Sequence record: SRR31156797_336
Length of the DNA: 64,000 bases
Strand: one strand, 5' to 3'
The first letter of the stretch is position 1; every line of letters begins with the position of its first letter. Both the position numbers and the translations under genes were made by a program. The notes under the pieces were generated by a model. The model saw only the letters and a program-made list of their open reading frames with translations. It was not told the DNA's origin and searched no databases. Positions 12,243 through 25,695 of the stretch are shown piece after piece.

Positions 12243-12250
12243 TATCTTTG
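12243..12250 (+). promoter_or_regulatory. Bacteroidota -7 promoter element of the arg operon leader
   Basis: TATCTTTG, 25 nt upstream of the first leader ATG. Confidence 0.7.
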
Positions 12251-12274
12251 TTGTCAACAAATCAGAAAAGAAGC

Positions 12275-12328
12275 ATGGAAAATTTAATTATCATTCGACG
12301 ACGCAAAAACGGATCTTTATTTTTATAA
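12275..12328 (+). CDS. Arg leader peptide 1 (MENLIIIRRRKNGSLFL)
   Basis: Read by hand; CGA CGA CGC at codons 8-10; followed by a terminator. Confidence 0.75.
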   Translation: MENLIIIRRRKNGSLFL

Positions 12329-12360
12329 AATAAGGGCAAGCGTTGGTATGATATTTCCCA

Positions 12361-12388
12361 AGCTTTCCAAATCGGAAAGTTTTTTTTT
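12361..12388 (+). terminator. Attenuator terminator 1
   Basis: AGCTTTCC-AAATC-GGAAAGTT plus T run; left arm can pair instead with GGGCAAGCGTTGG (12334-12346). Confidence 0.8.
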
Positions 12389-12413
12389 GAATTTGATTTT
12401 TATAAAACAGAAC

Positions 12414-12503
12414 ATGATGATCTTATTACACAACATTCGACGACGAAGATGTAGCGCACCAAAAGGGAAAGCGGATCAGGTCGTATTGTCGTGTAATCAA
12501 TGA
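12414..12503 (+). CDS. Arg leader peptide 2 (MMILLHNIRRRRCSAPKGKADQVVLSCNQ)
   Basis: Read by hand; CGA CGA CGA AGA at codons 9-12; followed by a terminator. Confidence 0.75.
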   Translation: MMILLHNIRRRRCSAPKGKADQVVLSCNQ

Positions 12504-12518
12504 TTAATAACAATATTT

Positions 12519-12554
12519 AAAAGGCTTATCGTTTTCCCGATAAGCCTTTTTTTT
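12519..12554 (+). terminator. Attenuator terminator 2
   Basis: AAAAGGCTTATCG-TTTTCC-CGATAAGCCTTTT plus T run; alternative pairing with 12465-12482. Confidence 0.85.
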
Positions 12555-12577
12555 GAACTAAAAATTTAAACTGCAAG

Positions 12578-12733
12578 ATGCACAGTAATATCCATACAGA
12601 AAGCAGACGCCATTTGCGAAGTAACTGTTACCCAGGAGGGACGGATGAGCTTGCTATATCTTGTAACGAGATATTATCAATAGTATTTAAGCTTACCGTT
12701 CCTACGGTGGGCTTTTTTTGTGTCAAAAATTAA
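12578..12733 (+). CDS. Arg leader peptide 3 (MHSNIHTESRRHLRSNC..., 51 aa)
   Basis: Read by hand; AGA CGC CAT TTG CGA at codons 10-14; frame runs through terminator 3. Confidence 0.6.
   Translation: MHSNIHTESRRHLRSNCYPGGTDELAISCNEILSIVFKLTVPTVGFFCVKN
12689..12719 (+). terminator. Attenuator terminator 3
   Basis: AAGCTTACCGT-TCCT-ACGGTGGGCTT plus T run; alternative pairing with AGGGACGGATGAGCTT (12637-12652). Confidence 0.85.
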
Positions 12734-12747
12734 AAAAAATAAATGCC

Positions 12748-12888
12748 ATGGATTTAAACAACTCCTTAGACTTTAGGCGACGCTGGTGCCAAAGATTAAA
12801 CAACAGCAATTTAAAAGAGAACTTCTTTGTAGATATAAATAACAAATGGTTATGCCTTACAGGTGTAGCACTTTTTTGGGAAACCTAG
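12748..12888 (+). CDS. Arg leader peptide 4 (MDLNNSLDFRRRWCQR..., 46 aa)
   Basis: Read by hand; AGG CGA CGC at codons 10-12; stop 11 nt before the likely argA start. Confidence 0.6.
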   Translation: MDLNNSLDFRRRWCQRLNNSNLKENFFVDINNKWLCLTGVALFWET

Positions 12889-12899
12889 AGTTAAACAAC

Positions 12900-13493
12900 A
12901 TGATAGATACATCAATGGAAATTGAGCAAAAAATAAGTGTCATTGTAGCAGGTCTTAGGCATATTGATAATGCTTGGGAAATTTGCGAAATGATTGAAGT
13001 TGCCGCAAAAATACGCGGGACAGGAATTGCCAAGAGAAATCCTTTGTACATCGTACAAAAAATACAGGAAGGAAAAGCCATAATCGCATTCGACGATAAT
13101 AAGGTAATTGGTTTTTGTTATGTAGAAACTTGGGAACACGGCAAATATGTAGCCAATTCAGGTCTAATTGTTGATCCTGAATACAGAGCAGTTGGGCTTG
13201 CCAAGCTAATTAAAGCAGAAGCATTTAAATTATCTCGAAAGCGGTATCCACATGCTAAAATCTTCGGACTAACCACCAGTCTTCCTGTCATGAAAATCAA
13301 TTCAGAATTGGGTTACAGACCTGTGACTTTCTCGGAACTAACAAGAGATGAGTCATTTTGGAAGGGATGTAGCAGTTGTGTGAACTATGATATACTGCAA
13401 AGAACAGATCGTAAAATGTGTCTTTGTACAGGTATGTTATTTGATCCAAGCAAAAATAGCACACCCAATTCAAGCGAAGGAGAAAACAAGTAA
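12900..13493 (+). CDS. argA: GNAT-family amino-acid N-acyltransferase (Bacteroidota ArgA-type)
   Basis: RGTGIAKR, VANSGLIV, FGLTT and FWKGC..C motifs; first gene of the arg operon; start moved from 12846 to ATG 12900 (12915 also possible). Confidence 0.8.
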   Translation: MIDTSMEIEQKISVIVAGLRHIDNAWEICEMIEVAAKIRGTGIAKRNPLYIVQKIQEGKAIIAFDDNKVIGFCYVETWEHGKYVANSGLIVDPEYRAVGLAKLIKAEAFKLSRKRYPHAKIFGLTTSLPVMKINSELGYRPVTFSELTRDESFWKGCSSCVNYDILQRTDRKMCLCTGMLFDPSKNSTPNSSEGENK

Positions 13494-13525
13494 GCAATTC
13501 AATCAATAAGCAAAAAATAAACACA

Positions 13526-14725
13526 ATGACAATCAATAAGAAAAAAGTAGTATTAGCATATAGCGGAGGATTAGATACAACATATTGTGCACTTTACCTG
13601 TCTAAGGAGTTGAACATGGATGTGTACACCGCACTGGGAAATACCGGAGGTTTTAGTAAGGACGAACTTACAGATATTGAGAACAGAACAAAACAACTGG
13701 GAGTAATCGAGCATGTATCGCTTGATGTAACAGAGGAATACTACGACAAATGCATTAAGTACATGATAATGGGGAATGTATTAAAAAACAATACTTATCC
13801 TTTATCTGTAAGTTCAGAAAGGGCTTTTCAAGCTATGGCAATAGCACAATACGCACATTCCATTGATGCAGATTATATCGCTCACGGAAGTACCGGAGCA
13901 GGCAATGATCAAATTAGATTCGATTTGATTTTTAAGATTATGGCACCAAATGCCGAGATTATTACTCCTACCAGAGATCTAGAATTAAGCAGAGAAACTG
14001 AAATAAACTACCTGAAAGAGCATGGTATTAATGCGAACTTTGAGAAAATGAAGTATTCGATTAATGCAGGTATTTGGGGTACAAGTATTGGTGGGAAAGA
14101 AACTTTAAGTTCCAATTTGCCATTGCCGGAAGAAGCTTATCCGAAGCAAGTTGTCAAAACTGAACCAGAGAAGCTAAGCATTGAATTTAAAGAAGGTGAG
14201 TTAGTTGCAGTTAATGGTGAAAGTGTAGCACATCCATTGGAAGCAATACAGAAAATTGAAGAAGCAGGAGCAGCTTTTGGTATTGGCAGAGACATGCACA
14301 TTGGAGACACAATTATAGGCACAAAAGGAAGAGTAGCATTTGAAGCTGCAGCTCCATTAATGATTATTCAAGCTCATCAAACTTTGGAAAAGCATACACT
14401 TACCAAGTGGCAAATGCACTGGAAAGAGCAAATTGCCAATTTCTACGGCATGTTGTTACACGAAGCTCAATATTTAGAACCGGTAATGAGAAATATGGAG
14501 ACTTTCCTTGAGGACACCCAGAAAAATGTAAACGGAACTGTTACAATTAAAATGTTTCCAAAGTATTTCCAGGTTGAAGGAATAGAATCTCCTAACGACT
14601 TAATGTCTGATCTGTTCGGACAATACGGCGAAAGCAACGAAGGTTGGACCGCTGATGATGTGAAAGGATTCACAAATATTTTAGCGAACTCATTAAAAAT
14701 CTATCACACCATAAACCAAAAATAA
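13526..14725 (+). CDS. argG: Argininosuccinate synthase
   Basis: LAYSGGLDT, HGSTGAGNDQIRF. Confidence 0.97.
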   Translation: MTINKKKVVLAYSGGLDTTYCALYLSKELNMDVYTALGNTGGFSKDELTDIENRTKQLGVIEHVSLDVTEEYYDKCIKYMIMGNVLKNNTYPLSVSSERAFQAMAIAQYAHSIDADYIAHGSTGAGNDQIRFDLIFKIMAPNAEIITPTRDLELSRETEINYLKEHGINANFEKMKYSINAGIWGTSIGGKETLSSNLPLPEEAYPKQVVKTEPEKLSIEFKEGELVAVNGESVAHPLEAIQKIEEAGAAFGIGRDMHIGDTIIGTKGRVAFEAAAPLMIIQAHQTLEKHTLTKWQMHWKEQIANFYGMLLHEAQYLEPVMRNMETFLEDTQKNVNGTVTIKMFPKYFQVEGIESPNDLMSDLFGQYGESNEGWTADDVKGFTNILANSLKIYHTINQK

Positions 14726-14726
14726 G

Positions 14727-15692
14727 ATGGTAAAAGTTGGAATTATAGGTGGTGCAGGATATACTGCAGGTGAATTGTTGCGGATTTTAATTTGGCATCC
14801 AAAAGTAGAGTTTGCTTTCATCCAAAGTACGAGTCACGCCAATCATCCCATCACGGATGTTCACAGAGATTTATTGGGTGATACCGATTTGGTTTTTGGG
14901 ACTGCGGATTATACCAAAGTTGATGTCATTTTTATCTGTTCGGGACATGGTAAAACCAAGTTGTTTCTAGAAAAGAACAACATATCATCTACTATTAAAA
15001 TAGTAGATTTAAGTACGGATTTCAGACCACAAAGCAATACAGAAGACTTTATTTATGGGTTGCCTGAGTTGAATAGGGATCAAATAAGGAATGCAGATAG
15101 AATTGCCAATCCGGGTTGTTTTGCGACTTGTATCGAGCTTGCGATACTTCCGTTAGCAGCAGAAAACAAATTGAAAGATGAAATTCACGTAAATGCAATT
15201 ACAGGATCAACCGGAGCAGGTCAAAATCCAACTGCCACTTCTCATTTTAGTTGGAAGAATAATAATGTTGCGGTGTACAAAGCTTTTAATCATCAGCATT
15301 TAGCTGAGATTACTGAAACAGTTTTGCAATTGCAAGTCAATTATAAAGAAGCAATCAACTTTATTCCCGTCCGCGGAAATTTTAGCAGAGGAATAATGGC
15401 TACCATGTATACCCTTTGTGACTGGACTTTAGAAGAAGCGAATCAGAAGTATGCTGAATTTTATACCAATCATCCCTTTGTGAGCATTTCTAAAGTCTTA
15501 CCAGATGTAAAACAAGTTGTAAACACAAACAAATGTGTTTTGTATCTTGAAAAACATGGAAACAAATTGATGGTGATATCTGTGATTGATAATTTATTAA
15601 AAGGTGCTTCGGGACAAGCGGTTCAAAATATGAATTTAATGTTCGGATTAGCTGAGAACACCGGTTTGGGATTAAAACCTGTCGGATTTTAA
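14727..15692 (+). CDS. argC: N-acetyl-gamma-glutamyl-phosphate reductase
   Basis: GGAGYTAGEL, IANPGCFAT, DNLLKGASGQAVQN. Confidence 0.97.
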   Translation: MVKVGIIGGAGYTAGELLRILIWHPKVEFAFIQSTSHANHPITDVHRDLLGDTDLVFGTADYTKVDVIFICSGHGKTKLFLEKNNISSTIKIVDLSTDFRPQSNTEDFIYGLPELNRDQIRNADRIANPGCFATCIELAILPLAAENKLKDEIHVNAITGSTGAGQNPTATSHFSWKNNNVAVYKAFNHQHLAEITETVLQLQVNYKEAINFIPVRGNFSRGIMATMYTLCDWTLEEANQKYAEFYTNHPFVSISKVLPDVKQVVNTNKCVLYLEKHGNKLMVISVIDNLLKGASGQAVQNMNLMFGLAENTGLGLKPVGF

Positions 15693-15703
15693 AAGAGAAT
15701 ACA

Positions 15704-16831
15704 ATGAAATTATTTGACGTATATAATTGTTACGATATAAATCTTGTAAACGGAAAAGGAGCTAAACTTTCCGATGACAAGGGTAATCAATATTTAGATT
15801 TTTATGGAGGGCACGGTGTAATATCTATAGGACATAGTCATCCGCATTACATGTTTCGAATAGAACACCAACTGCATTGCTTAGGGTTTTATTCTAATGC
15901 AGTTAAGAATGATTTGCAAGAAAAGTTAGCATGTAAATTGGGGAAAGTTAGTGCTTACGATCATTACAATCTATTTTTGTGTAATTCAGGAGCAGAAGCA
16001 AACGAAAATGCCTTAAAAATTGCCTCATTCCATAATAAGAAATCGAAAGTAGTATCCATAAAAGGAGCATTTCATGGAAGAACCGGTGGAGCACTAGCTA
16101 TTACTGATAATCCTAAATTATCCTCGCCTTATAATAAAGAACACGAGGTGGTGTTTATTGAAATGAACGATTCCAATACACTTGAGAATGAGTTGAAAAA
16201 TGGAGATGTTTCAGCCGTAATAATTGAAGGAATTCAAGGTGTTAACGGAGTATTTGAACCTAACTCAGAATTTTTAAAGAACGCAAAAGCAGCCTGTGAA
16301 AAGAACAATGCGCTTTTGATTTTAGATGAAATTCAATCAGGTTTTGGTAGAAGCGGAAAGTTCTTCGCTCATCAATATGCCGATGTACAACCGGATATCA
16401 TTACCACAGCCAAAGGAATGGGGAATGGTTTTCCAATTGCGGGAGTATTAATATCTCCTGAAATTGAAGCCTGGAAAGGAATGTTGGGAACTACATTTGG
16501 TGGAAATCATTTGGCATGTGCGGCAGCTACGGCTGTTTTAGAAACTATCGAAGAAGAAAATTTAATTGAGAATGCGGAACAAATGGGAGAGTATTTGATC
16601 TCAGCATTAAAAGATAATAAGGCAATAAAAGCAATAAGGGGGAAAGGTTTAATGATTGGTATCGATATGGAGAACATGTCGGAAATCAGAACAAAATTAT
16701 TGAAGGAATTCGGAATATTTACCGGTTCATCAGGAAGTAATACACTTCGCTTGTTACCACCACTTTCTATCACAAAGAAGGAGGCTGACCAATTCATTAA
16801 AGCATTTAATAAACTAACCCAAATTGTTTAA
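15704..16831 (+). CDS. argD: Acetylornithine aminotransferase
   Basis: NSGAEANE, FHGRT, DEIQSGFGR, AKGMGNG; arg operon context. Confidence 0.93.
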   Translation: MKLFDVYNCYDINLVNGKGAKLSDDKGNQYLDFYGGHGVISIGHSHPHYMFRIEHQLHCLGFYSNAVKNDLQEKLACKLGKVSAYDHYNLFLCNSGAEANENALKIASFHNKKSKVVSIKGAFHGRTGGALAITDNPKLSSPYNKEHEVVFIEMNDSNTLENELKNGDVSAVIIEGIQGVNGVFEPNSEFLKNAKAACEKNNALLILDEIQSGFGRSGKFFAHQYADVQPDIITTAKGMGNGFPIAGVLISPEIEAWKGMLGTTFGGNHLACAAATAVLETIEEENLIENAEQMGEYLISALKDNKAIKAIRGKGLMIGIDMENMSEIRTKLLKEFGIFTGSSGSNTLRLLPPLSITKKEADQFIKAFNKLTQIV

Positions 16832-16833
16832 AT

Positions 16834-17613
16834 ATGAGCGAACTGACAGTAGTAAAAATAGGTGGTAATGTAATTGATGATCCAGAAAAGTTGAATGAGT
16901 TTTTAGATGCTTTTTCAAATATTGGTGGTAAGGTTGTCTTGGTTCACGGAGGCGGAAAACTGGCATCCGACCTTTCTGGGGAATTGGGTGTGAAAACACA
17001 AATGGTAAATGGTAGAAGAATTACCGATGCTGAGAACTTGAAACTGGTAACTATGGTATATGCCGGATTGGTCAATAAGAATATCGTTGCCTCCTTGCAA
17101 GCCAGAGATGTTAATGCTTTAGGAATGTGTGGTGCCGATCAGAATTTGATACTTGCCGAGAAAAGAAATCATCCAAGTATTGATTTTGGTTTTGTGGGAG
17201 ATATCACGAAAGTAAATACACTGGCACTCTGCAAGCAGATTGAATGCAATTCTGTTTTGGTAATTGCTCCGATCACACATGATGGAGAAGGACAATTACT
17301 CAATACAAATGCAGATACTATTGCCACCGAAGTTGCTTCTTCCCTTAGTCGTTTTTACAATGTGAAATTGATCTACAGTTTTGAAAAACTTGGGGTCTTA
17401 CTAGATGCTGAAGATGATAGTAGCGTAATGCCGGTTTTATCATCAGAGGTATGCGGACAAATGGTGAAAGAGGGAAGTATTACCACCGGAATGATGCCAA
17501 AAACGGAGAATGCATTCTATGCACTTTCACAGGGTGTTGAAGAAGTGGTGATTGGTAATTTAGTTTCTATAGTGAATTGTCAATCCTCGGGAACGCAGGT
17601 TGTTAAATCATAA
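16834..17613 (+). CDS. argB: Acetylglutamate kinase
   Basis: VVKIGG, VHGGG, GRRITD, NTNAD, GMMPK. Confidence 0.95.
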   Translation: MSELTVVKIGGNVIDDPEKLNEFLDAFSNIGGKVVLVHGGGKLASDLSGELGVKTQMVNGRRITDAENLKLVTMVYAGLVNKNIVASLQARDVNALGMCGADQNLILAEKRNHPSIDFGFVGDITKVNTLALCKQIECNSVLVIAPITHDGEGQLLNTNADTIATEVASSLSRFYNVKLIYSFEKLGVLLDAEDDSSVMPVLSSEVCGQMVKEGSITTGMMPKTENAFYALSQGVEEVVIGNLVSIVNCQSSGTQVVKS

Positions 17614-17622
17614 TTGAGAAGG

Positions 17623-18687
17623 ATGAATTTTGAAAAATATACTACTATAGCTCTAAATATACTAAAAGAATTGATATCTATTCAATCTTATAGTAAAGAA
17701 GAGAATCAAGTAGCTGATTTGATGGAGAAGAAACTAAGTGAATTAGGCTACTCTGTTAATAGAAAAGGAAATAATGTTTGGGTTTTTAATAAGGATTTTA
17801 AAGAAGGTAAGCCTGTTTTACTGATGAATTCTCATTTAGATACAGTAAAGCCAAACGAAAAATGGACGAAAGAACCATTTACACCAGAAATATCTGAGGA
17901 TAAATTGTATGGTTTGGGAAGTAATGATGCCGGAGGTTGTTTGGTGTCTTTATTTGCTACATTTCTTGCCTTGGAAGAGACAGAACAAGATTTCAACAGA
18001 GTTTTTTGTGCATCTGCTGAAGAGGAGATCTCTGGTAAGAATGGATTTGAACTGGTGCAGCAGGAGATAGGTAGAATCGACGTTGGAATAGTAGGAGAAC
18101 CAACTCTTATGGAGATGGCTATTGCGGAGAAAGGTCTAATGGTTTTGGATTGTGAAGCAAAAGGAATTCCGGGGCATGCGGCCCGTAACGAAGGTTTAAA
18201 TGCCATTAATGTTGCCATGAAGGATATTGAATGGTTACATTCTTATGAATTCGAAAAGGAATCGGATATGCTGGGACCGGTGAAAATGACCGTAACTCAG
18301 GTAAATGCAGGGAAACAACACAATGTGATTCCATCATCCTGTAAGTTTGTGGTAGATGTAAGAACCAATGAGCATTATACCAACACAAAAGCATTTTCAA
18401 TTATTCAGAAACATTTGAAAAGTGATGCTATTGCCAGATCGTTTAGAATGAATTCATCGGGAATACCATTGGAACATCCATTAGTTCAGAATGGAATAAG
18501 CTTGAATATGAGCCATTATGGTTCACCAACAACATCCGATCAGGCGATAATGAAAGGTTTTCCTACACTTAAACTTGGACCAGGAGATTCGGCACGTTCA
18601 CACACAGCTGATGAGTTCATCTATGTGAAAGAAATTGGAGATGGCATCGAAAAATATTATAACTTGTTGAATGGACTAATTTTATAA
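17623..18687 (+). CDS. argE: M20 family acylornithine/acylcitrulline deacylase
   Basis: NSHLDTV, GSNDAGG, EEE, VGEPT, SHTADE; arg operon context; ATG 17623 preferred over TTG 17614. Confidence 0.88.
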   Translation: MNFEKYTTIALNILKELISIQSYSKEENQVADLMEKKLSELGYSVNRKGNNVWVFNKDFKEGKPVLLMNSHLDTVKPNEKWTKEPFTPEISEDKLYGLGSNDAGGCLVSLFATFLALEETEQDFNRVFCASAEEEISGKNGFELVQQEIGRIDVGIVGEPTLMEMAIAEKGLMVLDCEAKGIPGHAARNEGLNAINVAMKDIEWLHSYEFEKESDMLGPVKMTVTQVNAGKQHNVIPSSCKFVVDVRTNEHYTNTKAFSIIQKHLKSDAIARSFRMNSSGIPLEHPLVQNGISLNMSHYGSPTTSDQAIMKGFPTLKLGPGDSARSHTADEFIYVKEIGDGIEKYYNLLNGLIL

Positions 18688-18833
18688 ATTAATAATTAGT
18701 AGTTGTGAATTATTTATGAGGATATAAATGATTCATAACTTGCAGCTTGAGGCTGATAGCTGATGGATTTAAAATTAAGAGATAAGCAATATCAACACAC
18801 TAATTTGAGAAATACATACCTAAAACACAAAAT

Positions 18834-20171
18834 ATGAAACTTTGGGACAAAGGCATAAAAGTCGATAAGAAAATTGAACAATTTACAGTTGGAAAAGATC
18901 GTGAATTAGACCTTCAATTGGCAGCTTTCGACATTTTAGGCACATTGGCACATATTGAAATGCTAGAATCAATTGATTTGCTTAAAAAAGATGAATTAAA
19001 GCAAATACAGGAAGAATTGCGCAAGATTTATTCAACGATTAAAAATGAAGCTTTTGTAATTGAAGATGGAGTGGAGGATGTTCATTCGCAAATAGAAGTT
19101 TTATTGACTGAGGAGTTGGGTGATGTAGGTAAGAAAATACACAGTGGACGATCAAGAAACGATCAGGTTTTACTTGATCTGAAATTATTTACCAGAAACA
19201 AGCTGGAAGAAATTGTTCGCGAGGCAAGATTACTGTTCGATGAATTGATTTCTAAAAGTAATCAATACAAAAAGGTATTGATGCCAGGATATACGCATTT
19301 ACAGGTTGCAATGCCTTCTTCATTCGGACTTTGGTTTGGTTCTTATGCCGAAAGTTTAACCGATGACCTAATGGTTTTGCAATCCGCTTACAAGGTGGTG
19401 AATCAGAATCCACTAGGATCTGGAGCAGGTTATGGTTCTTCTTTCCCTTTAAATCGTCAAATGACTACAGATTTACTAGGATTTAGAGATTTAAGCTACA
19501 ATGTGGTGTATGCACAAATGGGACGTGGTAAAATGGAATTTACCGTTTTGTCTGCACTGGCAAATATGGCAATGACCATTGGTAAACTGGCTATGGATGC
19601 CTGTTTGTACAACAGTCAGAACTTTAACTTTCTAAGTTTCCCTGATGAGCTAACAACAGGAAGCAGTATCATGCCTCACAAGAAGAATCCAGATGTGTTC
19701 GAAATGATTCGTGCAAATGCCAATGCCTTGCAGATGCTTCCTGCTCAAATTCAGGCGGTAACCTCAAATTTGCCATCAGGATATCACCGAGATTACCAAT
19801 TGACCAAGGAATTCTTTATGCCTGCCTTCGATAAGATGTTGGCTTGTATCGAAATGACAAGAATAATGCTTTCAGAAGTGAAAATCAATAAAGATATCCT
19901 TAACGATGACAGATATCAATATTTGTTTACCGTTGAAGAGGTTAATAGATTGGTATTAAAAGGAACTCCTTTTCGTGATGCTTACAAAGAAGTGGGGCAA
20001 ATTGTAGAAAAAGGTGAATTTAAATACAACGGCAAACTAAAATATGTACACGAAGGAAGTATTGGGAATTTGTGTAACGATAAAATCGTAAATAAGATGA
20101 ATGAAATATTTGTTGGTTTTAACTTTAACAGAACCAAAGAGGCTTATATGAACCTATTAAATAGAATATAG
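18834..20171 (+). CDS. argH: Argininosuccinate lyase
   Basis: HSGRSRNDQ, MPGYTHLQ, GSSIMPHKKNPD. Confidence 0.97.
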   Translation: MKLWDKGIKVDKKIEQFTVGKDRELDLQLAAFDILGTLAHIEMLESIDLLKKDELKQIQEELRKIYSTIKNEAFVIEDGVEDVHSQIEVLLTEELGDVGKKIHSGRSRNDQVLLDLKLFTRNKLEEIVREARLLFDELISKSNQYKKVLMPGYTHLQVAMPSSFGLWFGSYAESLTDDLMVLQSAYKVVNQNPLGSGAGYGSSFPLNRQMTTDLLGFRDLSYNVVYAQMGRGKMEFTVLSALANMAMTIGKLAMDACLYNSQNFNFLSFPDELTTGSSIMPHKKNPDVFEMIRANANALQMLPAQIQAVTSNLPSGYHRDYQLTKEFFMPAFDKMLACIEMTRIMLSEVKINKDILNDDRYQYLFTVEEVNRLVLKGTPFRDAYKEVGQIVEKGEFKYNGKLKYVHEGSIGNLCNDKIVNKMNEIFVGFNFNRTKEAYMNLLNRI

Positions 20172-20227
20172 CAGGTATTTCACTTAACTATTAATTAGAA
20201 TTTTTATAACCATTTTATAGTACTTTT

Positions 20228-21325
20228 ATGTCACAACAGACAAAAGCAAAATTGATTTTACAGGATGGTTCCGAATTTATCGGAACATCCTTTGGTCACC
20301 AGGAATCTATTGCTGGTGAAATGGTGTTTAACACTGCAATGACCGGATATCCTGAAAGTCTTACAGATCCATCCTACAAAGGACAAATACTGGTAAGTAC
20401 TTTCCCACTAATTGGTAACTACGGTGTTCCGGGAACACTTCAGAAAGACGAGTTGTTCCGCTTTTATGAATCTGAAAAGATTCAGGTCTCTGCTTTTATT
20501 GTATCGGATTACACCGAAGAATTCAGTCACTGGAATGCGAGTCTAAGTCTTGGAGACTGGATGAAACAGCACAAGATTCCGGGTCTTTATGGTATTGATA
20601 CACGAGCCTTAACCAAGAAACTTCGAGAACAAGGAAGCATGCTTGCTAAGATTGTGTTTGAAGAACAGGATGTAGCTTTGATAGATCCTAACCTTGAAAA
20701 TTTAGTTGCCAAGGTAAGCACCTCAGAAAAGAAGGTGTATGGAGAAGGAAAGCACAAAGTACTCCTTTTAGATTGCGGCGTAAAGAACAATATCATTCGA
20801 TGTTTACTAAAGCGTGATACTACGGTAATACGTGTGCCTCACGATTACGATTTCTCACAGGAAGAATACGATGGGTTGTTCATATCTAACGGACCGGGAG
20901 ATCCAAAGCAGAATACTACTGCGATAGCAAATCTTAAAAATGCTTTCAATCAGGATACTCCAATCATGGGGATTTGCCTGGGAACACAATTGATGGCTTT
21001 AGCCGCCGGGGCAGATACTTACAAGCTAAAATACGGTCACAGATCTCACAATCAGCCTGTAGTTTTAAAGGGAACCAAGCGATGTTTCATTACCTCTCAA
21101 AACCATGGTTATGCAATTAATAATGATACTCTACCAAAGGAATGGGAGCCATTATTTATCAATGCCAATGATGATACTTGCGAAGGAATAAAGCACGTTT
21201 CCAAGCCTTTCTTTGCCTCTCAGTTTCATCCTGAGGCATCAAGTGGACCAACTGATACGGAGTTCCTTTTCGATGATTTCATTAAAATGATGGAAGAGTT
21301 CAAGTTAAAAAAGGAAAAAGTATAA
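20228..21325 (+). CDS. carA: Carbamoyl-phosphate synthase small subunit
   Basis: FNTAMTGY, SNGPGDP, GICLG, QFHPEA. Confidence 0.97.
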   Translation: MSQQTKAKLILQDGSEFIGTSFGHQESIAGEMVFNTAMTGYPESLTDPSYKGQILVSTFPLIGNYGVPGTLQKDELFRFYESEKIQVSAFIVSDYTEEFSHWNASLSLGDWMKQHKIPGLYGIDTRALTKKLREQGSMLAKIVFEEQDVALIDPNLENLVAKVSTSEKKVYGEGKHKVLLLDCGVKNNIIRCLLKRDTTVIRVPHDYDFSQEEYDGLFISNGPGDPKQNTTAIANLKNAFNQDTPIMGICLGTQLMALAAGADTYKLKYGHRSHNQPVVLKGTKRCFITSQNHGYAINNDTLPKEWEPLFINANDDTCEGIKHVSKPFFASQFHPEASSGPTDTEFLFDDFIKMMEEFKLKKEKV

Positions 21326-21377
21326 GGTAATTGATGAATTACCACCTGCTTTAGCTGGTGGATTAAAGAAGACAAAA

Positions 21378-24300
21378 ATGAAAAAAGACAACATAAAGAA
21401 AGTACTCGTATTAGGCTCAGGAGCACTTAAGATTGGTGAAGCTGGTGAATTTGATTATTCCGGATCTCAGGCATTAAAAGCCATGAAAGAAGAAGGCATT
21501 CAAACTGTATTGATCAATCCCAATATCGCCACCGTACAAACTTCCAAGGGAGTTGCCGATCAAATCTATTTTTTGCCGGTTACTCCCTTTTTTGTGGAAG
21601 AAGTCATCTTAAAAGAAAAACCAGATGGTATTCTGCTTGCATTTGGTGGGCAAACTGCTCTTAATTGTGGTATAGAGCTTTTCGAAAATGGAATTCTTGA
21701 AAAGTACAACCTTCAGGTTTTAGGTACTCCTATCGAGACCATTATTAAAACCGAAGACCGTGAGATATTTGCCAACGAGCTTCGCAAGATTGATGTTAAA
21801 ACCCCACAATCATATGCCGTAGGATCTATTGATGGAGCTGTAGATGCTGCTGAGAAATTAGGTTTCCCAATCATCATACGTGCTGCCTTTACGCTTGGAG
21901 GACAAGGTTCAGGTTTCTGTTCCAATATGGAGGAGCTAAAAGCTTTAGCAGAGAATGCTTTATCTTACTCTAGTCAAATTTTGGTAGAAGAATCACTAAA
22001 AGGATGGAAAGAGGTAGAGTACGAAGTGGTTCGTGATGCTTATGACAACTGTATTACTGTTTGTAATATGGAGAATTTCGATCCTTTGGGAATCCATACA
22101 GGAGAGAGTATCGTAATTGCACCATCGCAAACGCTAACCAATTCAGAATATCACAAGCTAAGATCCTTGGCGATCAAGATCATACGTCACATGGGAGTTG
22201 TGGGAGAGTGTAACGTACAGTACGCTTTAGATCCTAACTCGGAAGATTACCGTGTAATTGAGGTGAATGCACGTTTGTCACGTTCATCAGCCCTGGCATC
22301 GAAAGCAACGGGTTATCCATTGGCTTTTGTTGCAGCTAAATTGGGCTTGGGATATGCATTGCATGAACTGAAAAATACCGTAACTCAAACTACAACGGCT
22401 TGTTTCGAACCAGCTCTTGACTATGTGGTATGTAAGATTCCTCGTTGGGATTTGAACAAGTTCGAAGGAGTTACTAAGGAGATTGGCTCAAGCATGAAGT
22501 CTGTTGGAGAGGTTATGGCAATTGGTCGAAACTTCGAGGAAGCTGTTCAGAAAGGATTGCGTATGATTGGTCAAGGAATGCATGGTTTTGTGGGGAATGT
22601 ACATTCTAAGTTCGAGGATGTAGATTACGAGTTGACTCACCCTACCGATATGCGTATTTTTTCTATCGCGCAAGCATTTGAACAAGGCTATTCTATCGAT
22701 AAGATTCACGATCTGACTAAGATTGACAAGTGGTTCCTAAGCAAACTGGAACACATTACAAAGATTAAGTGGGATCTACAGAAAAATAAGAATTTACAGC
22801 AATTACCTAAAGAATTGCTTAAGGCTGCTAAAGTATATGGTTTCTCCGATTTTCAGATTGCTCGTTTCGTGTTAAAGCCCGAAGCTACCAATATGGAAGA
22901 TGAGCTTTTACAGGTACGTAAGCTTCGTAAGGAGTACGGTATTGTTCCTGTAGTGAAGCAAATTGATACACTCGCTGCGGAGTATCCGGCACAAACCAAT
23001 TACATTTATCTTACCTATAGTGGCGATGAAAACGACATCACTTACGTGGATGACAATCAATCGGTAATCGTTTTGGGATCGGGAGCGTATCGTATTGGTT
23101 CATCGGTAGAATTCGACTGGTGTAGCGTAAATGCATTAAATGCAGTAAATAAAGAAGGATTGCGATCGGTAATGATCAACTACAATCCGGAAACGGTAAG
23201 TACCGATTACGATGTGTGTGACCGATTGTATTTCGACGAGCTTTCTTTTGAAAGAGTATTGGATATCATCGATTTAGAATCACCACGAGGTGTAATTGTA
23301 TCGGTAGGAGGACAGATTCCACAAAACTTATCCATGCGTTTGCATAAGGCAGATGTAAAGGTATTGGGAACTTCTCCTGAATCAATCGACAGAGCAGAGA
23401 ATCGTCAGACTTTCTCAGCCATGCTGGATGAGTTGAAAGTAGATCAACCTCGTTGGAATGAGCTAACCAGTAAGGAAGCCATCAACGACTTTATAGCAGA
23501 GGTTGGATTCCCTGTTTTGATACGTCCAAGTTATGTATTATCGGGAGCAGCTATGAATGTGGTATCAAACCCTGATGAATTGGGACATTTCTTGGACTTA
23601 GCTGCCCAGGTATCAAAGCAATACCCTGTAGTAGTAAGTGAGTTTATACAGGAAGCAAAGGAGATTGAGTTCGATGGAGTTGCTAAGAATGGTGAAATTG
23701 TAATTGATGCCATATCGGAGCACGTAGAGTTTGCCGGAGTGCACTCGGGTGATGCTACGCTGGTATTTCCTCCTCAGAAGCTGTATTTTGAAACCATACG
23801 CCGTATTCGTAAGATAGCTGGTAAAATTGCAAAATCGCTCGACATTACCGGACCATTCAACATGCAGTTGCTGGCAAAAGACAACGACATTAAGGTAATT
23901 GAGTGTAATCTTCGTGCTAGTCGTAGTTTCCCATTCGTTTCGAAAGTAATGGACTTTAATTTCGTGGAAACAGCTACACAGGCTATGCTCGATGTCAACA
24001 TTCCTAACAATCGACCATCCATGTTCGAGTTGGAGCATATTGGTGTAAAAGCCTCTCAATTCTCCTTCTCAAGACTGTCAAAAGCCGATCCTGTATTGGG
24101 TGTAGACATGTCCTCAACAGGTGAAGTGGGCTGTTTGGGCGCCGATTACTACGATGCCATATTAAAAGCTATGATATCAGTTGGTTATCGCATACCGAAG
24201 AAAGCTGTACTAATTAGTAGTGGTCCTATTCGCTCGAAGATTGAGCTTTTAAAGAGTTCAAAGATGCTGGAAGAGCGTGGCTACAAGCTTTACGGAACAA

Positions 24301-24620
24301 GAGGTACTGCAAAATTCCTTGAGGAGAATGGTGTGAAGATAGAAAGTGTAGGTTGGCCTGATGAAGATACCGAGAAAAATGCAGTAAGCCTGATTCGTAA
24401 CCGTGAGGTTGATTTCGTGGTAAACATTCCGAAAAACTTAAGCAAAACGGAATTAAATAACGATTATCAAATCAGAAGAACCGCAATTGACCTAAACGTA
24501 CCATTGGTAACCAATGCACGTTTGGCATCTGCCTTTATCTATTCATTTTGCAAAAAATCACAATCTGATTTAGCAATTGATAGCTTTAGCGATTACGTGG
24601 AGCAAAAGCAGGAGTGGTAG
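21378..24620 (+). CDS. carB: Carbamoyl-phosphate synthase large subunit
   Basis: GEFDYSGSQA, two ATP-grasp halves, C-terminal MGS domain. Confidence 0.98.
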   Translation: MKKDNIKKVLVLGSGALKIGEAGEFDYSGSQALKAMKEEGIQTVLINPNIATVQTSKGVADQIYFLPVTPFFVEEVILKEKPDGILLAFGGQTALNCGIELFENGILEKYNLQVLGTPIETIIKTEDREIFANELRKIDVKTPQSYAVGSIDGAVDAAEKLGFPIIIRAAFTLGGQGSGFCSNMEELKALAENALSYSSQILVEESLKGWKEVEYEVVRDAYDNCITVCNMENFDPLGIHTGESIVIAPSQTLTNSEYHKLRSLAIKIIRHMGVVGECNVQYALDPNSEDYRVIEVNARLSRSSALASKATGYPLAFVAAKLGLGYALHELKNTVTQTTTACFEPALDYVVCKIPRWDLNKFEGVTKEIGSSMKSVGEVMAIGRNFEEAVQKGLRMIGQGMHGFVGNVHSKFEDVDYELTHPTDMRIFSIAQAFEQGYSIDKIHDLTKIDKWFLSKLEHITKIKWDLQKNKNLQQLPKELLKAAKVYGFSDFQIARFVLKPEATNMEDELLQVRKLRKEYGIVPVVKQIDTLAAEYPAQTNYIYLTYSGDENDITYVDDNQSVIVLGSGAYRIGSSVEFDWCSVNALNAVNKEGLRSVMINYNPETVSTDYDVCDRLYFDELSFERVLDIIDLESPRGVIVSVGGQIPQNLSMRLHKADVKVLGTSPESIDRAENRQTFSAMLDELKVDQPRWNELTSKEAINDFIAEVGFPVLIRPSYVLSGAAMNVVSNPDELGHFLDLAAQVSKQYPVVVSEFIQEAKEIEFDGVAKNGEIVIDAISEHVEFAGVHSGDATLVFPPQKLYFETIRRIRKIAGKIAKSLDITGPFNMQLLAKDNDIKVIECNLRASRSFPFVSKVMDFNFVETATQAMLDVNIPNNRPSMFELEHIGVKASQFSFSRLSKADPVLGVDMSSTGEVGCLGADYYDAILKAMISVGYRIPKKAVLISSGPIRSKIELLKSSKMLEERGYKLYGTRGTAKFLEENGVKIESVGWPDEDTEKNAVSLIRNREVDFVVNIPKNLSKTELNNDYQIRRTAIDLNVPLVTNARLASAFIYSFCKKSQSDLAIDSFSDYVEQKQEW

Positions 24621-24645: not shown

Positions 24646-24681
24646 AAACCTGTCAGGATTTAAAATCCTGACAGGTTTTTT
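24646..24681 (+). terminator. Palindromic terminator / REP-like hairpin after carB
   Basis: AAACCTGTCAGGATT-TAA-AATCCTGACAGGTTT plus T run. Confidence 0.8.
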
Positions 24682-24999: not shown

Positions 25000-25695
25000 T
25001 TATTGTACTGTTAGTGTTTTGGCATAAGAGCCAATGCTTAACTTCTTATTGTTTTTGTGAATGCTTCTAACTTGAAGTTTGTAATTGCCTGCTACCAAAG
25101 TGGCAGGTATTTGAAAAATTTGGGTAGAATCCGTATTGGTCACGTAAACCGTAACTCTGTGTTCCGTTCCATCATCAGCAATAAAGAAAATTCCTTGTGT
25201 AGTATCTGCTTCTTCAGATTTTAAGCGCTTCCCTTTTAGTTCACCAATTCCACCAGGAGATGCAATGTCGATCTCTTCAGTATTTGTGTGATCGGTAAAG
25301 CTGTAAATATCTACAAGTGCAGATTTAGGTTCAATTTTATGAAGCTTTGTTTCTTCAGCTGCCTTTTTTAAGAGAACCCCAGGAGTTGAATTAAAGCGAA
25401 GTTTGTGTCGGTTCACATCGAAACTATCGTTAAAATCATCAAAAACTCCGGTGATACTTGGTGAAATATTTATCAATGGAGTATTAATGGCATAGCCTTT
25501 TTCCAAACTTTCGGTTACCACCGTTTCAAGACGTTTGAAAATACTTTCTGCCTCGTAAGGAGTTATTCCTGTACCTTCTTTACAACATTCATTTATCAGA
25601 TCTTCTCGATTTAAAACCCGAATTGGAGATGGCTTAGCAATACAATCATTCGGATCTTCAGTCAACATGTTTAAATTTAAATAGTATTCAATCAT
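25000..25695 (-). CDS. HU-like DNA-binding domain plus DUF4469-type Ig-like domain protein
   Basis: N-terminal L..N.LT.DP.D..A and GYAINTPL..SPSITGVF; C-terminal G.RLK..D..QGIFF, IP..L..G.Y.L.V. Confidence 0.7.
   Translation of the reverse strand: MIEYYLNLNMLTEDPNDCIAKPSPIRVLNREDLINECCKEGTGITPYEAESIFKRLETVVTESLEKGYAINTPLINISPSITGVFDDFNDSFDVNRHKLRFNSTPGVLLKKAAEETKLHKIEPKSALVDIYSFTDHTNTEEIDIASPGGIGELKGKRLKSEEADTTQGIFFIADDGTEHRVTVYVTNTDSTQIFQIPATLVAGNYKLQVRSIHKNNKKLSIGSYAKTLTVQ

Follow-up and report, generated by a model that had tools for sequence, protein, structure and literature searches.

A leader of about 650 nucleotides (nt) upstream of an arg-car operon was analyzed in SRR31156797_336, a 64,000-nt stretch of DNA that is referred to here as the window and whose positions serve as coordinates throughout. 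The leader carries four consecutive upstream open reading frames (uORFs), each with a cluster of arginine (Arg) codons, and on balance we consider it probable that it forms one transcript passing four arginine-responsive, ribosome-read gates in series, which replace the repressor ArgR. The window is assigned by its sequence to a Labilibaculum-like member of the Bacteroidales, and the first operon gene encodes a protein with 85-91% identity to counterparts in Labilibaculum genomes. A preceding reading made from the letters of the window (the sequence-only reading) had noted a nine-gene arg-car operon; it lies at 12900-24620, and a name could be assigned to all nine genes. The elements of the leader and the operon are arranged as follows:

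12243-12250, + strand: TAnnTTTG, a Bacteroidota-type -7 promoter element, the single copy on this strand between 11900 and 12900
12275-12328, + strand: uORF1, 17 codons, with Arg codons 8-10 (CGA CGA CGC) at 12296-12304
12417-12503, + strand: uORF2, 28 codons from the conserved ATG, with Arg codons 9-12 (CGA CGA CGA AGA) at 12438-12449
12578-12733, + strand: uORF3, with Arg codons 10, 11 and 14 at 12605-12610 and 12617-12619
12748-12888, + strand: uORF4, 46 codons, with Arg codons 10-12 and 16 at 12775-12783 and 12793-12795
12900-24620, + strand: arg-car operon, comprising GNAT (argA-like), argG, argC, argD, argB, argE, argH, carA and carB

All four uORFs that had been proposed, with their Arg clusters within codons 8-16, were found again in the sequence; in uORF2 an extra ATG is present at 12414, and relatives conserve the second ATG at 12417 as the start. 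Such an arrangement is not a product of chance, since none of 5000 dinucleotide shuffles of the 649-nt leader contained four Arg-cluster uORFs (4432 shuffles contained none, 540 one, 27 two and a single shuffle three). Conservation was assessed over 17 distinct leaders, consisting of the window, three named metagenome-assembled genomes (L001-L003), one metagenome contig (L081, first gene 75% identical) and twelve loci (L161-L172, of which L168 is the same place as L004) that came from sampling 40 genomes of the family. The metagenome contig was the sole clade member gained by a metagenome scan, the other 79 loci from that scan being more distant. The proposed Arg clusters hold up in this alignment of upstream regions: all four uORFs with their clusters occur in 17/17 leaders of the Labilibaculum clade, whose GNAT proteins are 75-91% identical, and in one of them (L171) the Arg codons of uORF4 alternate instead of being consecutive. 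Within the clusters of the 17 leaders, CGA accounts for 147 of 257 Arg codons, as against only 15% of the Arg codons in the long genes of the window, where AGA makes up 46%. Five clade genomes each hold one full copy of the leader, with otherwise short, weak matches.

The four-uORF leader was not found in any of the 15 loci from other genera in the same family sample (15/15; first gene 55-61% identical). In a wider set of 169 loci, each having 600 nt or more of sequence upstream and drawn from Bacteroidota and neighbouring phyla, at least three Arg-cluster uORFs were present only in the 17 loci of the Labilibaculum clade, the remaining loci having none (93), one (54) or two (5). A single uORF whose final codons are an Arg run, Pro and the stop is common in loci from Flavobacteriia and Cytophagia, 50-300 nt upstream of the GNAT gene (e.g. 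L010, L016, L033, L039, L042, L065, L076, L077, L080, L105, L106, L131, L143 and L147, plus others), and Tenacibaculum-like loci (L023, L055, L069) carry two Arg uORFs. These single- and double-uORF loci share with the Labilibaculum clade the operon, its first gene and the use of Arg as the regulatory codons; the Labilibaculum clade differs in having four units of differing sequence, none of which ends in Arg-Pro-stop.

The first three uORFs had each been credited with a hairpin followed by a U tract, and three strong sites of this kind were located, the leader containing four terminator-like sites in total compared to 1.2 +/- 1.4 in shuffled sequences. Alternative structures that could compete with the three terminators were sought by folding each unit with a ribosome footprint masking the Arg codons and with the transcript cut before the 3' arm of the terminator, which yielded one antiterminator per unit (lengths in base pairs, bp):

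12360-12389, + strand: terminator 1, 9-bp stem at 12360-12382, U tract of 9
12519-12554, + strand: terminator 2, 13-bp stem at 12519-12550, U tract of 8
12689-12719, + strand: terminator 3, 11-bp stem at 12689-12714, U tract of 7
12334-12368, + strand: unit 1 antiterminator, 11 pairs, 12334-12346 with 12358-12368, overlapping the 5' arm of terminator 1
12465-12538, + strand: unit 2 antiterminator, 15 pairs, 12465-12474 with 12529-12538 and 12478-12482 with 12523-12527
12637-12703, + strand: unit 3 antiterminator, 14 bp, 12637-12644 with 12696-12703 and 12646-12651 with 12690-12695

The antiterminator of unit 2 overlaps the 5' arm and loop of its terminator, and that of unit 3 spans the whole 5' arm of terminator 3. 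Pairing was counted over the leaders and recounted after the partner strand had been slid by 1-3 columns. The unit 1 antiterminator is paired in 91.4% of alignment cells (16 distinct sequences) compared to 21-68% in slid positions, the unit 2 antiterminator in 86.2% compared to 40-55%, and the unit 3 antiterminator in 93.3% compared to 37-56%; the covariation scores of the latter two were matched by 2/500 and 7/500 shuffles, respectively. For terminator 3 the paired share of cells is 97.9%, terminators 1 and 2 are present in the consensus folds, and one pair of terminator 2 is maintained through two-sided changes (C-G, U-A, U-G). Since a conserved antiterminator overlaps the terminator in each of units 1-3, these units are read as attenuators in series.

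In form, units 1 and 2 are textbook attenuators, as far as their layout can tell. The consensus fold of unit 2 pairs the Arg codons with a downstream strand (columns 44-50 with 90-96) in 15-17 of the 17 leaders, and in the folding model this helix is the classical 1:2 helix. The stop codon of unit 1 lies 6 nt before the antiterminator strand, and in both units a ribosome reaching the stop would keep the antiterminator from forming without covering the terminator arm. The length of uORF2 is 28 codons in 17/17 leaders. Coding selection was measured as the ratio of synonymous to non-synonymous codon variants in the annotated frame and in the off-frames; the ratios of 8:25 for uORF1 and 30:57 for uORF2 are close to those of the off-frames, and the peptide beyond the Arg run is not conserved.

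In an Rfam scan of the leader with E values up to 10, no family reached its gathering threshold, the scores being 27.8 bits against a threshold of 49 for Bacteroid-trp, the best leader match, 19.6 against 55 for Phe_leader, and 31.4 against 115 for GibS. The match to the Bacteroides small RNA GibS (12377-12555, E = 0.04) was rejected as a sign of family membership; it is driven by a terminator and its A/U-rich flank.

Unit 3 combines the same pair of competing structures with a conserved peptide. Codons 9-19 of uORF3 (12602-12634) specify an identical run of eleven residues in 17/17 leaders, with 8 synonymous and 0 non-synonymous variants (off-frames 2:6 and 1:7), among them a switch between the Ser codons AGT and TCG, and this invariant block ends two nucleotides before the 5' strand of the antiterminator. 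The stop codon of uORF3 is not fixed: in 6/17 leaders, including the window, the frame runs through the terminator, and in the others it ends at the base of the terminator's 5' arm. The stop codon of the window lies beyond terminator 3, at 12731-12733, and two of its letters are changed in a near-identical strain (DNA run X4), so that the tail of uORF3 looks unconstrained. This pattern suggests that the nascent uORF3 peptide, and not the stop codon, would position the ribosome on the antiterminator strand.

The fourth unit is of a different kind. Aligned from start to stop, the frame of uORF4 has 46 codons in 17/17 leaders (with a shifted ATG in L164 and L172), and it ends in TAG in 17/17, at 12886-12888 and 11 nt before the first gene in the window and with a gap of 7-18 nt to the first-gene ATG in all 17 leaders. 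A position of this sort is familiar from leader genes of Bacteroidetes, whose stops peak 11-14 bp before the gene start, which a published survey reads as reinitiation (PMC4833913). Arg is found at codons 10, 11, 12 and 15 in 15-16 of the 17 leaders, encoded by varied Arg codons. Farther downstream, codons 31-46 (12838-12885) show 22 synonymous and 5 non-synonymous variants, while the off-frames give 5:20 and 6:22, and at two positions of this conserved tail all four ACN and all four GCN codons are used; by this codon pattern, the last 16 residues of uORF4 are under strong peptide-level selection. An N-terminal extension of the first gene from 12846 was considered as the source of the conservation and rejected, because relatives have in-frame stops before the start. 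Relatives of uORF4 outside the clade are scarce: among 201 genomes of the order the one real match was the centre genome itself, a set of 5.8 billion proteins contained 4 clusters, one of them named only 'hypothetical protein', and an Atlas search with uORF4 gave no match.

The hairpin of unit 4 lies inside this reading frame:

12849-12877, + strand: weak hairpin and U tract inside uORF4, stem at 12849-12869, not conserved as a terminator

At least 8 of the 17 leaders have interruptions in the U tract of this hairpin, where synonymous Leu and Phe codons vary, and the consensus structure of the unit reaches only -4.06 kcal/mol. With the hairpin within an open reading frame, the U tract unconserved and the fold this weak, unit 4 was rejected as an intrinsic terminator. 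The sequence-only reading had envisaged an arginine attenuator three to four units deep, which stands for units 1-3 with their terminator/antiterminator anatomy, although the geometry of unit 3 is non-classical; unit 4, which has a conserved peptide (22:5) in place of a conserved terminator, is not a classical attenuator, and the fourth gate is probably translational. An RNA switch in unit 4 that unmasks the start of the first gene was also rejected, as masking of the Arg zone left the unpaired probability at 0.56 compared to 0.55 (17 sequences). Since masking had no effect, unit 4 is taken to act via the position of the ribosome. Separately, a second short hairpin, GC-rich and of 4 bp, with a run of 6-7 U (or U4-G-U) after it, occurs inside uORF4 in 7/17 leaders (L001-L003 and L167-L170) at about codons 21-28 (columns ~84-106 of alignment A6), and is absent from the window and its nearest relatives.

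The distribution of ArgR was compared with that of the leader. The domain Arg_repressor_C was detected in 0/12 leader-bearing genomes and in 22/28 of the others in the 40-genome family sample (Fisher one-sided p = 3.3e-6); the twelve leader-bearing genomes form one clade, so that the contrast probably reflects one evolutionary event. Both ArgR domains, the N-terminal one included, were missing from G002, while control genomes including Bacteroides thetaiotaomicron do match ArgR domains. The earlier observation that no argR gene lies beside the operon agrees with a Pfam scan of 10 window open reading frames (nine of 146-175 amino acids, one of 231), none of which matched an ArgR family, and the genome-wide search in relatives extends it to the whole clade sample.

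A lone TAnnTTTG element had been noticed ahead of the uORFs, and it is kept 28-33 nt before the uORF1 start in 17/17 leaders, whereas a second copy within the leader is present in only 2/17; the four units thus appear to share a single promoter. Over the whole window the motif occurs no more often than expected (83 copies against 90.7), so that the weight of the element at 12243-12250 rests on its conservation. In L171 only, a second TAnnTTTG is located about 227 nt upstream of the GNAT start, in the spacer between terminator 3 and uORF4, and is possibly an internal promoter; this spacer is about 60 nt longer in the deeper branch formed by L081, L171 and L172. A scan for sigma-70 promoters, which are of the wrong type for this phylum, was discarded (10 found, 11.8 expected).

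From this anatomy we infer the following course of events. At gates 1 and 2, scarcity of Arg-tRNA would stall the ribosome on the mostly-CGA run, the downstream strand would pair with the 5' arm of the terminator to form the antiterminator, and RNA polymerase would continue; with arginine plentiful, the ribosome would reach the stop codon, the antiterminator would be prevented and the terminator would form. Gate 3 would operate by the same terminator/antiterminator switch, with the invariant 11-residue nascent peptide parking the ribosome on the antiterminator strand. Gate 4 would act on translation and not on termination: a ribosome finishing uORF4 would sit at the TAG, with the 16-residue tail in the tunnel, and block initiation at the first gene, while a stall at the Arg codons some 90 nt upstream would leave the first-gene start free. 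The series would substitute for the ArgR repressor that is missing from the clade, and it is reasonable to expect that read-through probabilities would multiply along it to give a steep switch.

Several observations weigh against such a series of four gates. The covariation score of the unit 1 antiterminator is matched by 143/500 shuffles, and the Arg-codon helix of unit 1 is paired in only 78.7% of cells. True covariation is sparse, with 1-2 pairs per helix changed on both sides, and because the window supplied the helices and its close relatives the sequences on which they were counted, the procedure favours them; what has been measured is therefore conserved pairing potential, not strong covariation. 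The variant ratios of uORF1 and uORF2 contain little or no coding signal, which is expected for classical leaders and is no proof of translation. Unit 3, with its variable stop and a frame that crosses the terminator in the window, fits the classical model poorly, and a ribosome completing uORF3 would cover the 5' arm of terminator 3. Gate 4 received no RNA-switch support in the masking test, and its direction is a guess. The absence of ArgR from the genome of the window itself is presumed from its relatives. On the other side, a 170-nt contig from a marine-sediment RNA library (run X16) matches 12277-12446 with one difference and bridges terminator 1; as the library may contain DNA and the match is a single contig with a depth of 3.4, it gives a weak hint of one-piece transcription of the leader. 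Coverage by run X16 is confined to 12277-12446, and runs X17 and X18 cover just parts of the first gene, gaps in this coverage being uninformative.

Other explanations differ mainly in what they make of units 3 and 4. Four equivalent transcription attenuators in series, each sensing Arg-tRNA and each with its own terminator, would fit the location of the Arg cluster at the same codon range in every uORF, the hairpin and U tract of unit 4 in the window, and the second uORF4 hairpin carried by 7/17 relatives. However, the hairpin and U tract of unit 4 lie within an open reading frame and would be erased by ribosomes translating it, at least 8/17 leaders have a broken U tract, the fold amounts to -4.06 kcal/mol and no antiterminator was found for this unit, so that four equivalent gates seem rather improbable. 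A small but appreciable probability goes to uORF3 and uORF4 encoding arrest peptides, the nascent chains of which would hold free arginine (or ornithine) in the exit tunnel and stall the ribosome. A stall over the antiterminator strand in uORF3 would favour termination, one at the TAG of uORF4 would block the first-gene start, and the Arg residues would be the sensor part, instead of or besides the sensing of tRNA charging. Selection is indeed on the peptide and not just on the RNA (8:0 and 22:5), the conserved residues coincide with those expected in the upper tunnel of a ribosome stalled at the proposed sites, the uORF4 stop is always TAG (17/17) while that of uORF3 is irrelevant, and the layout is like that of SpeFL (10.1101/604074). 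On the other hand, inspection found the SpeFL recognition motif in none of the 68 uORF peptides, a constitutive pause would account for the same conservation, and uORF4 has few relatives (4 clusters among 5.8 billion proteins). Should the peptides of uORF3 and uORF4 make the ribosome sense free arginine (or ornithine) beside two classical Arg-tRNA-sensing attenuators, a combination that we likewise regard as an outside chance, the operon would read both pools before expression.

The remaining two explanations assign the uORFs a lesser role. A run of 12 identical nt is found at equal offset from the start in units 1 and 2, and the local alignment of units 2 and 3 has z = 5.0, with 0/200 shuffles as high; this weak paralogy suggests that the leader grew by tandem duplication, and it would also suit repeats that are partly decayed duplicates, of which one or two regulate and the rest are neutral passengers or terminator 'insulators'. 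Decay is difficult to reconcile with the persistence of four Arg clusters, three terminators and three antiterminators in 17/17 leaders, down to a first-gene identity of 75%, while, over the same span, codons other than Arg and the spacers are free to change, and we regard it as quite improbable. Units 2 and 3 contain long stretches of almost invariant nucleotides, which could instead point to control of the terminators by an RNA-binding protein (TRAP- or PyrR-like) or by a metabolite-binding RNA, with the uORFs being incidental. Yet the variation within the invariant-peptide block is synonymous, no Rfam family is at threshold (Bacteroid-trp, the best, at 27.8 of 49 bits), and Arg codons are the sole feature shared by all four units, which makes control of this type very improbable. 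The series of four ribosome-read gates, three acting on termination and the fourth probably on translation, is kept as the probable reading.

Beyond the leader, one further terminator was identified at the end of the operon:

24646-24678, both strands: operon-end terminator, a hairpin of 15 bp, perfectly palindromic and with a U tract on each strand

Lying between carB and a convergent gene (25000-25695), it is likely a bidirectional terminator. The argE-argH gap (18688-18833, 146 nt) contains neither an Arg uORF nor a terminator-like site, and it may hold an internal promoter. A gene for an argF-type ornithine/acyl-ornithine carbamoyltransferase is not among the nine genes of the operon; it must sit elsewhere and may have its own control.

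Arginine is a textbook case of a pathway under a repressor, ArgR, instead of attenuation, while leader-peptide attenuators are represented by trpL, hisL, leuL, thrL, pheL and ilvL and, in Bacteroidota, by the Rfam family Bacteroid-trp. Units 1-3 resemble these classical attenuators in that a run of codons for the end product is followed by mutually exclusive antiterminator and terminator structures upstream of a biosynthetic operon. In contrast to the present leader, the classical systems consist of one unit and not of three in series, and respond to an amino acid other than arginine; unit 3, with its conserved peptide and no fixed stop, is unlike them in this respect as well. No description of an Arg-codon leader attenuator of an arginine-biosynthesis operon was found in a literature search that had subscription journals outside its coverage. 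Leader-peptide attenuation upstream of amino-acid operons is reported in a transcriptome study of Flavobacterium psychrophilum (PMC9723704).

Stacking of complete termination switches for the same signal in one leader is known from tandem riboswitches and T-boxes. These are RNA-ligand or tRNA sensors of Bacillota, whereas the sensor in the arg leader would be the translating ribosome. Up to three contiguous T-boxes have been described, an arrangement called exceptional (PMC12452182). Several leader ORFs in one long leader, each with its own stem-loops, are also a feature of Salmonella mgtCBR, where two ORFs are reported to answer different signals (PMC3641672); in the arg leader there are four, and all point to arginine.

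For gate 4, the Staphylococcus aureus rbfL leader offers a partial parallel, in which a ribosome stalled at the Arg codons of a uORF reportedly covers the next start and represses it under Arg limitation (PMC13009471). In both cases, initiation at the adjacent gene would depend on where the Arg codons of a uORF place the ribosome; in uORF4, however, about 90-105 nt separate the Arg codons from the start downstream, and the effect is predicted to have the opposite sign.

Translation initiation in Bacteroidota works without Shine-Dalgarno pairing, and to our knowledge almost no arrest peptides are known from this phylum. Elsewhere, termination-arrest peptides include the fungal arginine attenuator peptide and TnaC, which responds to tryptophan. 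uORF3 and uORF4 are like arrest peptides in the conservation of the peptide nearest the peptidyl-transferase centre, and uORF4 also in its invariant stop; they are unlike them in lacking sequence similarity and in an output that would repress a biosynthetic operon. SpeFL, a leader peptide that captures ornithine, is reported to combine an N-proximal Arg pair in the sensor loop with an aromatic/hydrophobic C-terminal effector, termination at UAG and a hairpin where the ORF ends (10.1101/604074). In comparison, uORF4 has an Arg pair or triple far behind the peptidyl-transferase centre, an aromatic/hydrophobic tail, UAG and a 3'-end hairpin.

If the reading of four gates is true, arginine would join the pathways controlled by attenuation, and the leader would be the deepest series of leader-peptide switches among the descriptions found. 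It would then provide a natural system for what stacking buys, be it lower leak, a steeper response or the reading of different pools. uORF3 and uORF4 are candidates for new ribosome-arrest peptides in Bacteroidota, and, should they make the ribosome a sensor of free arginine (or ornithine), they would be to bacteria what the arginine attenuator peptide is to fungi, and would resemble SpeFL and TnaC but serve a biosynthetic operon.

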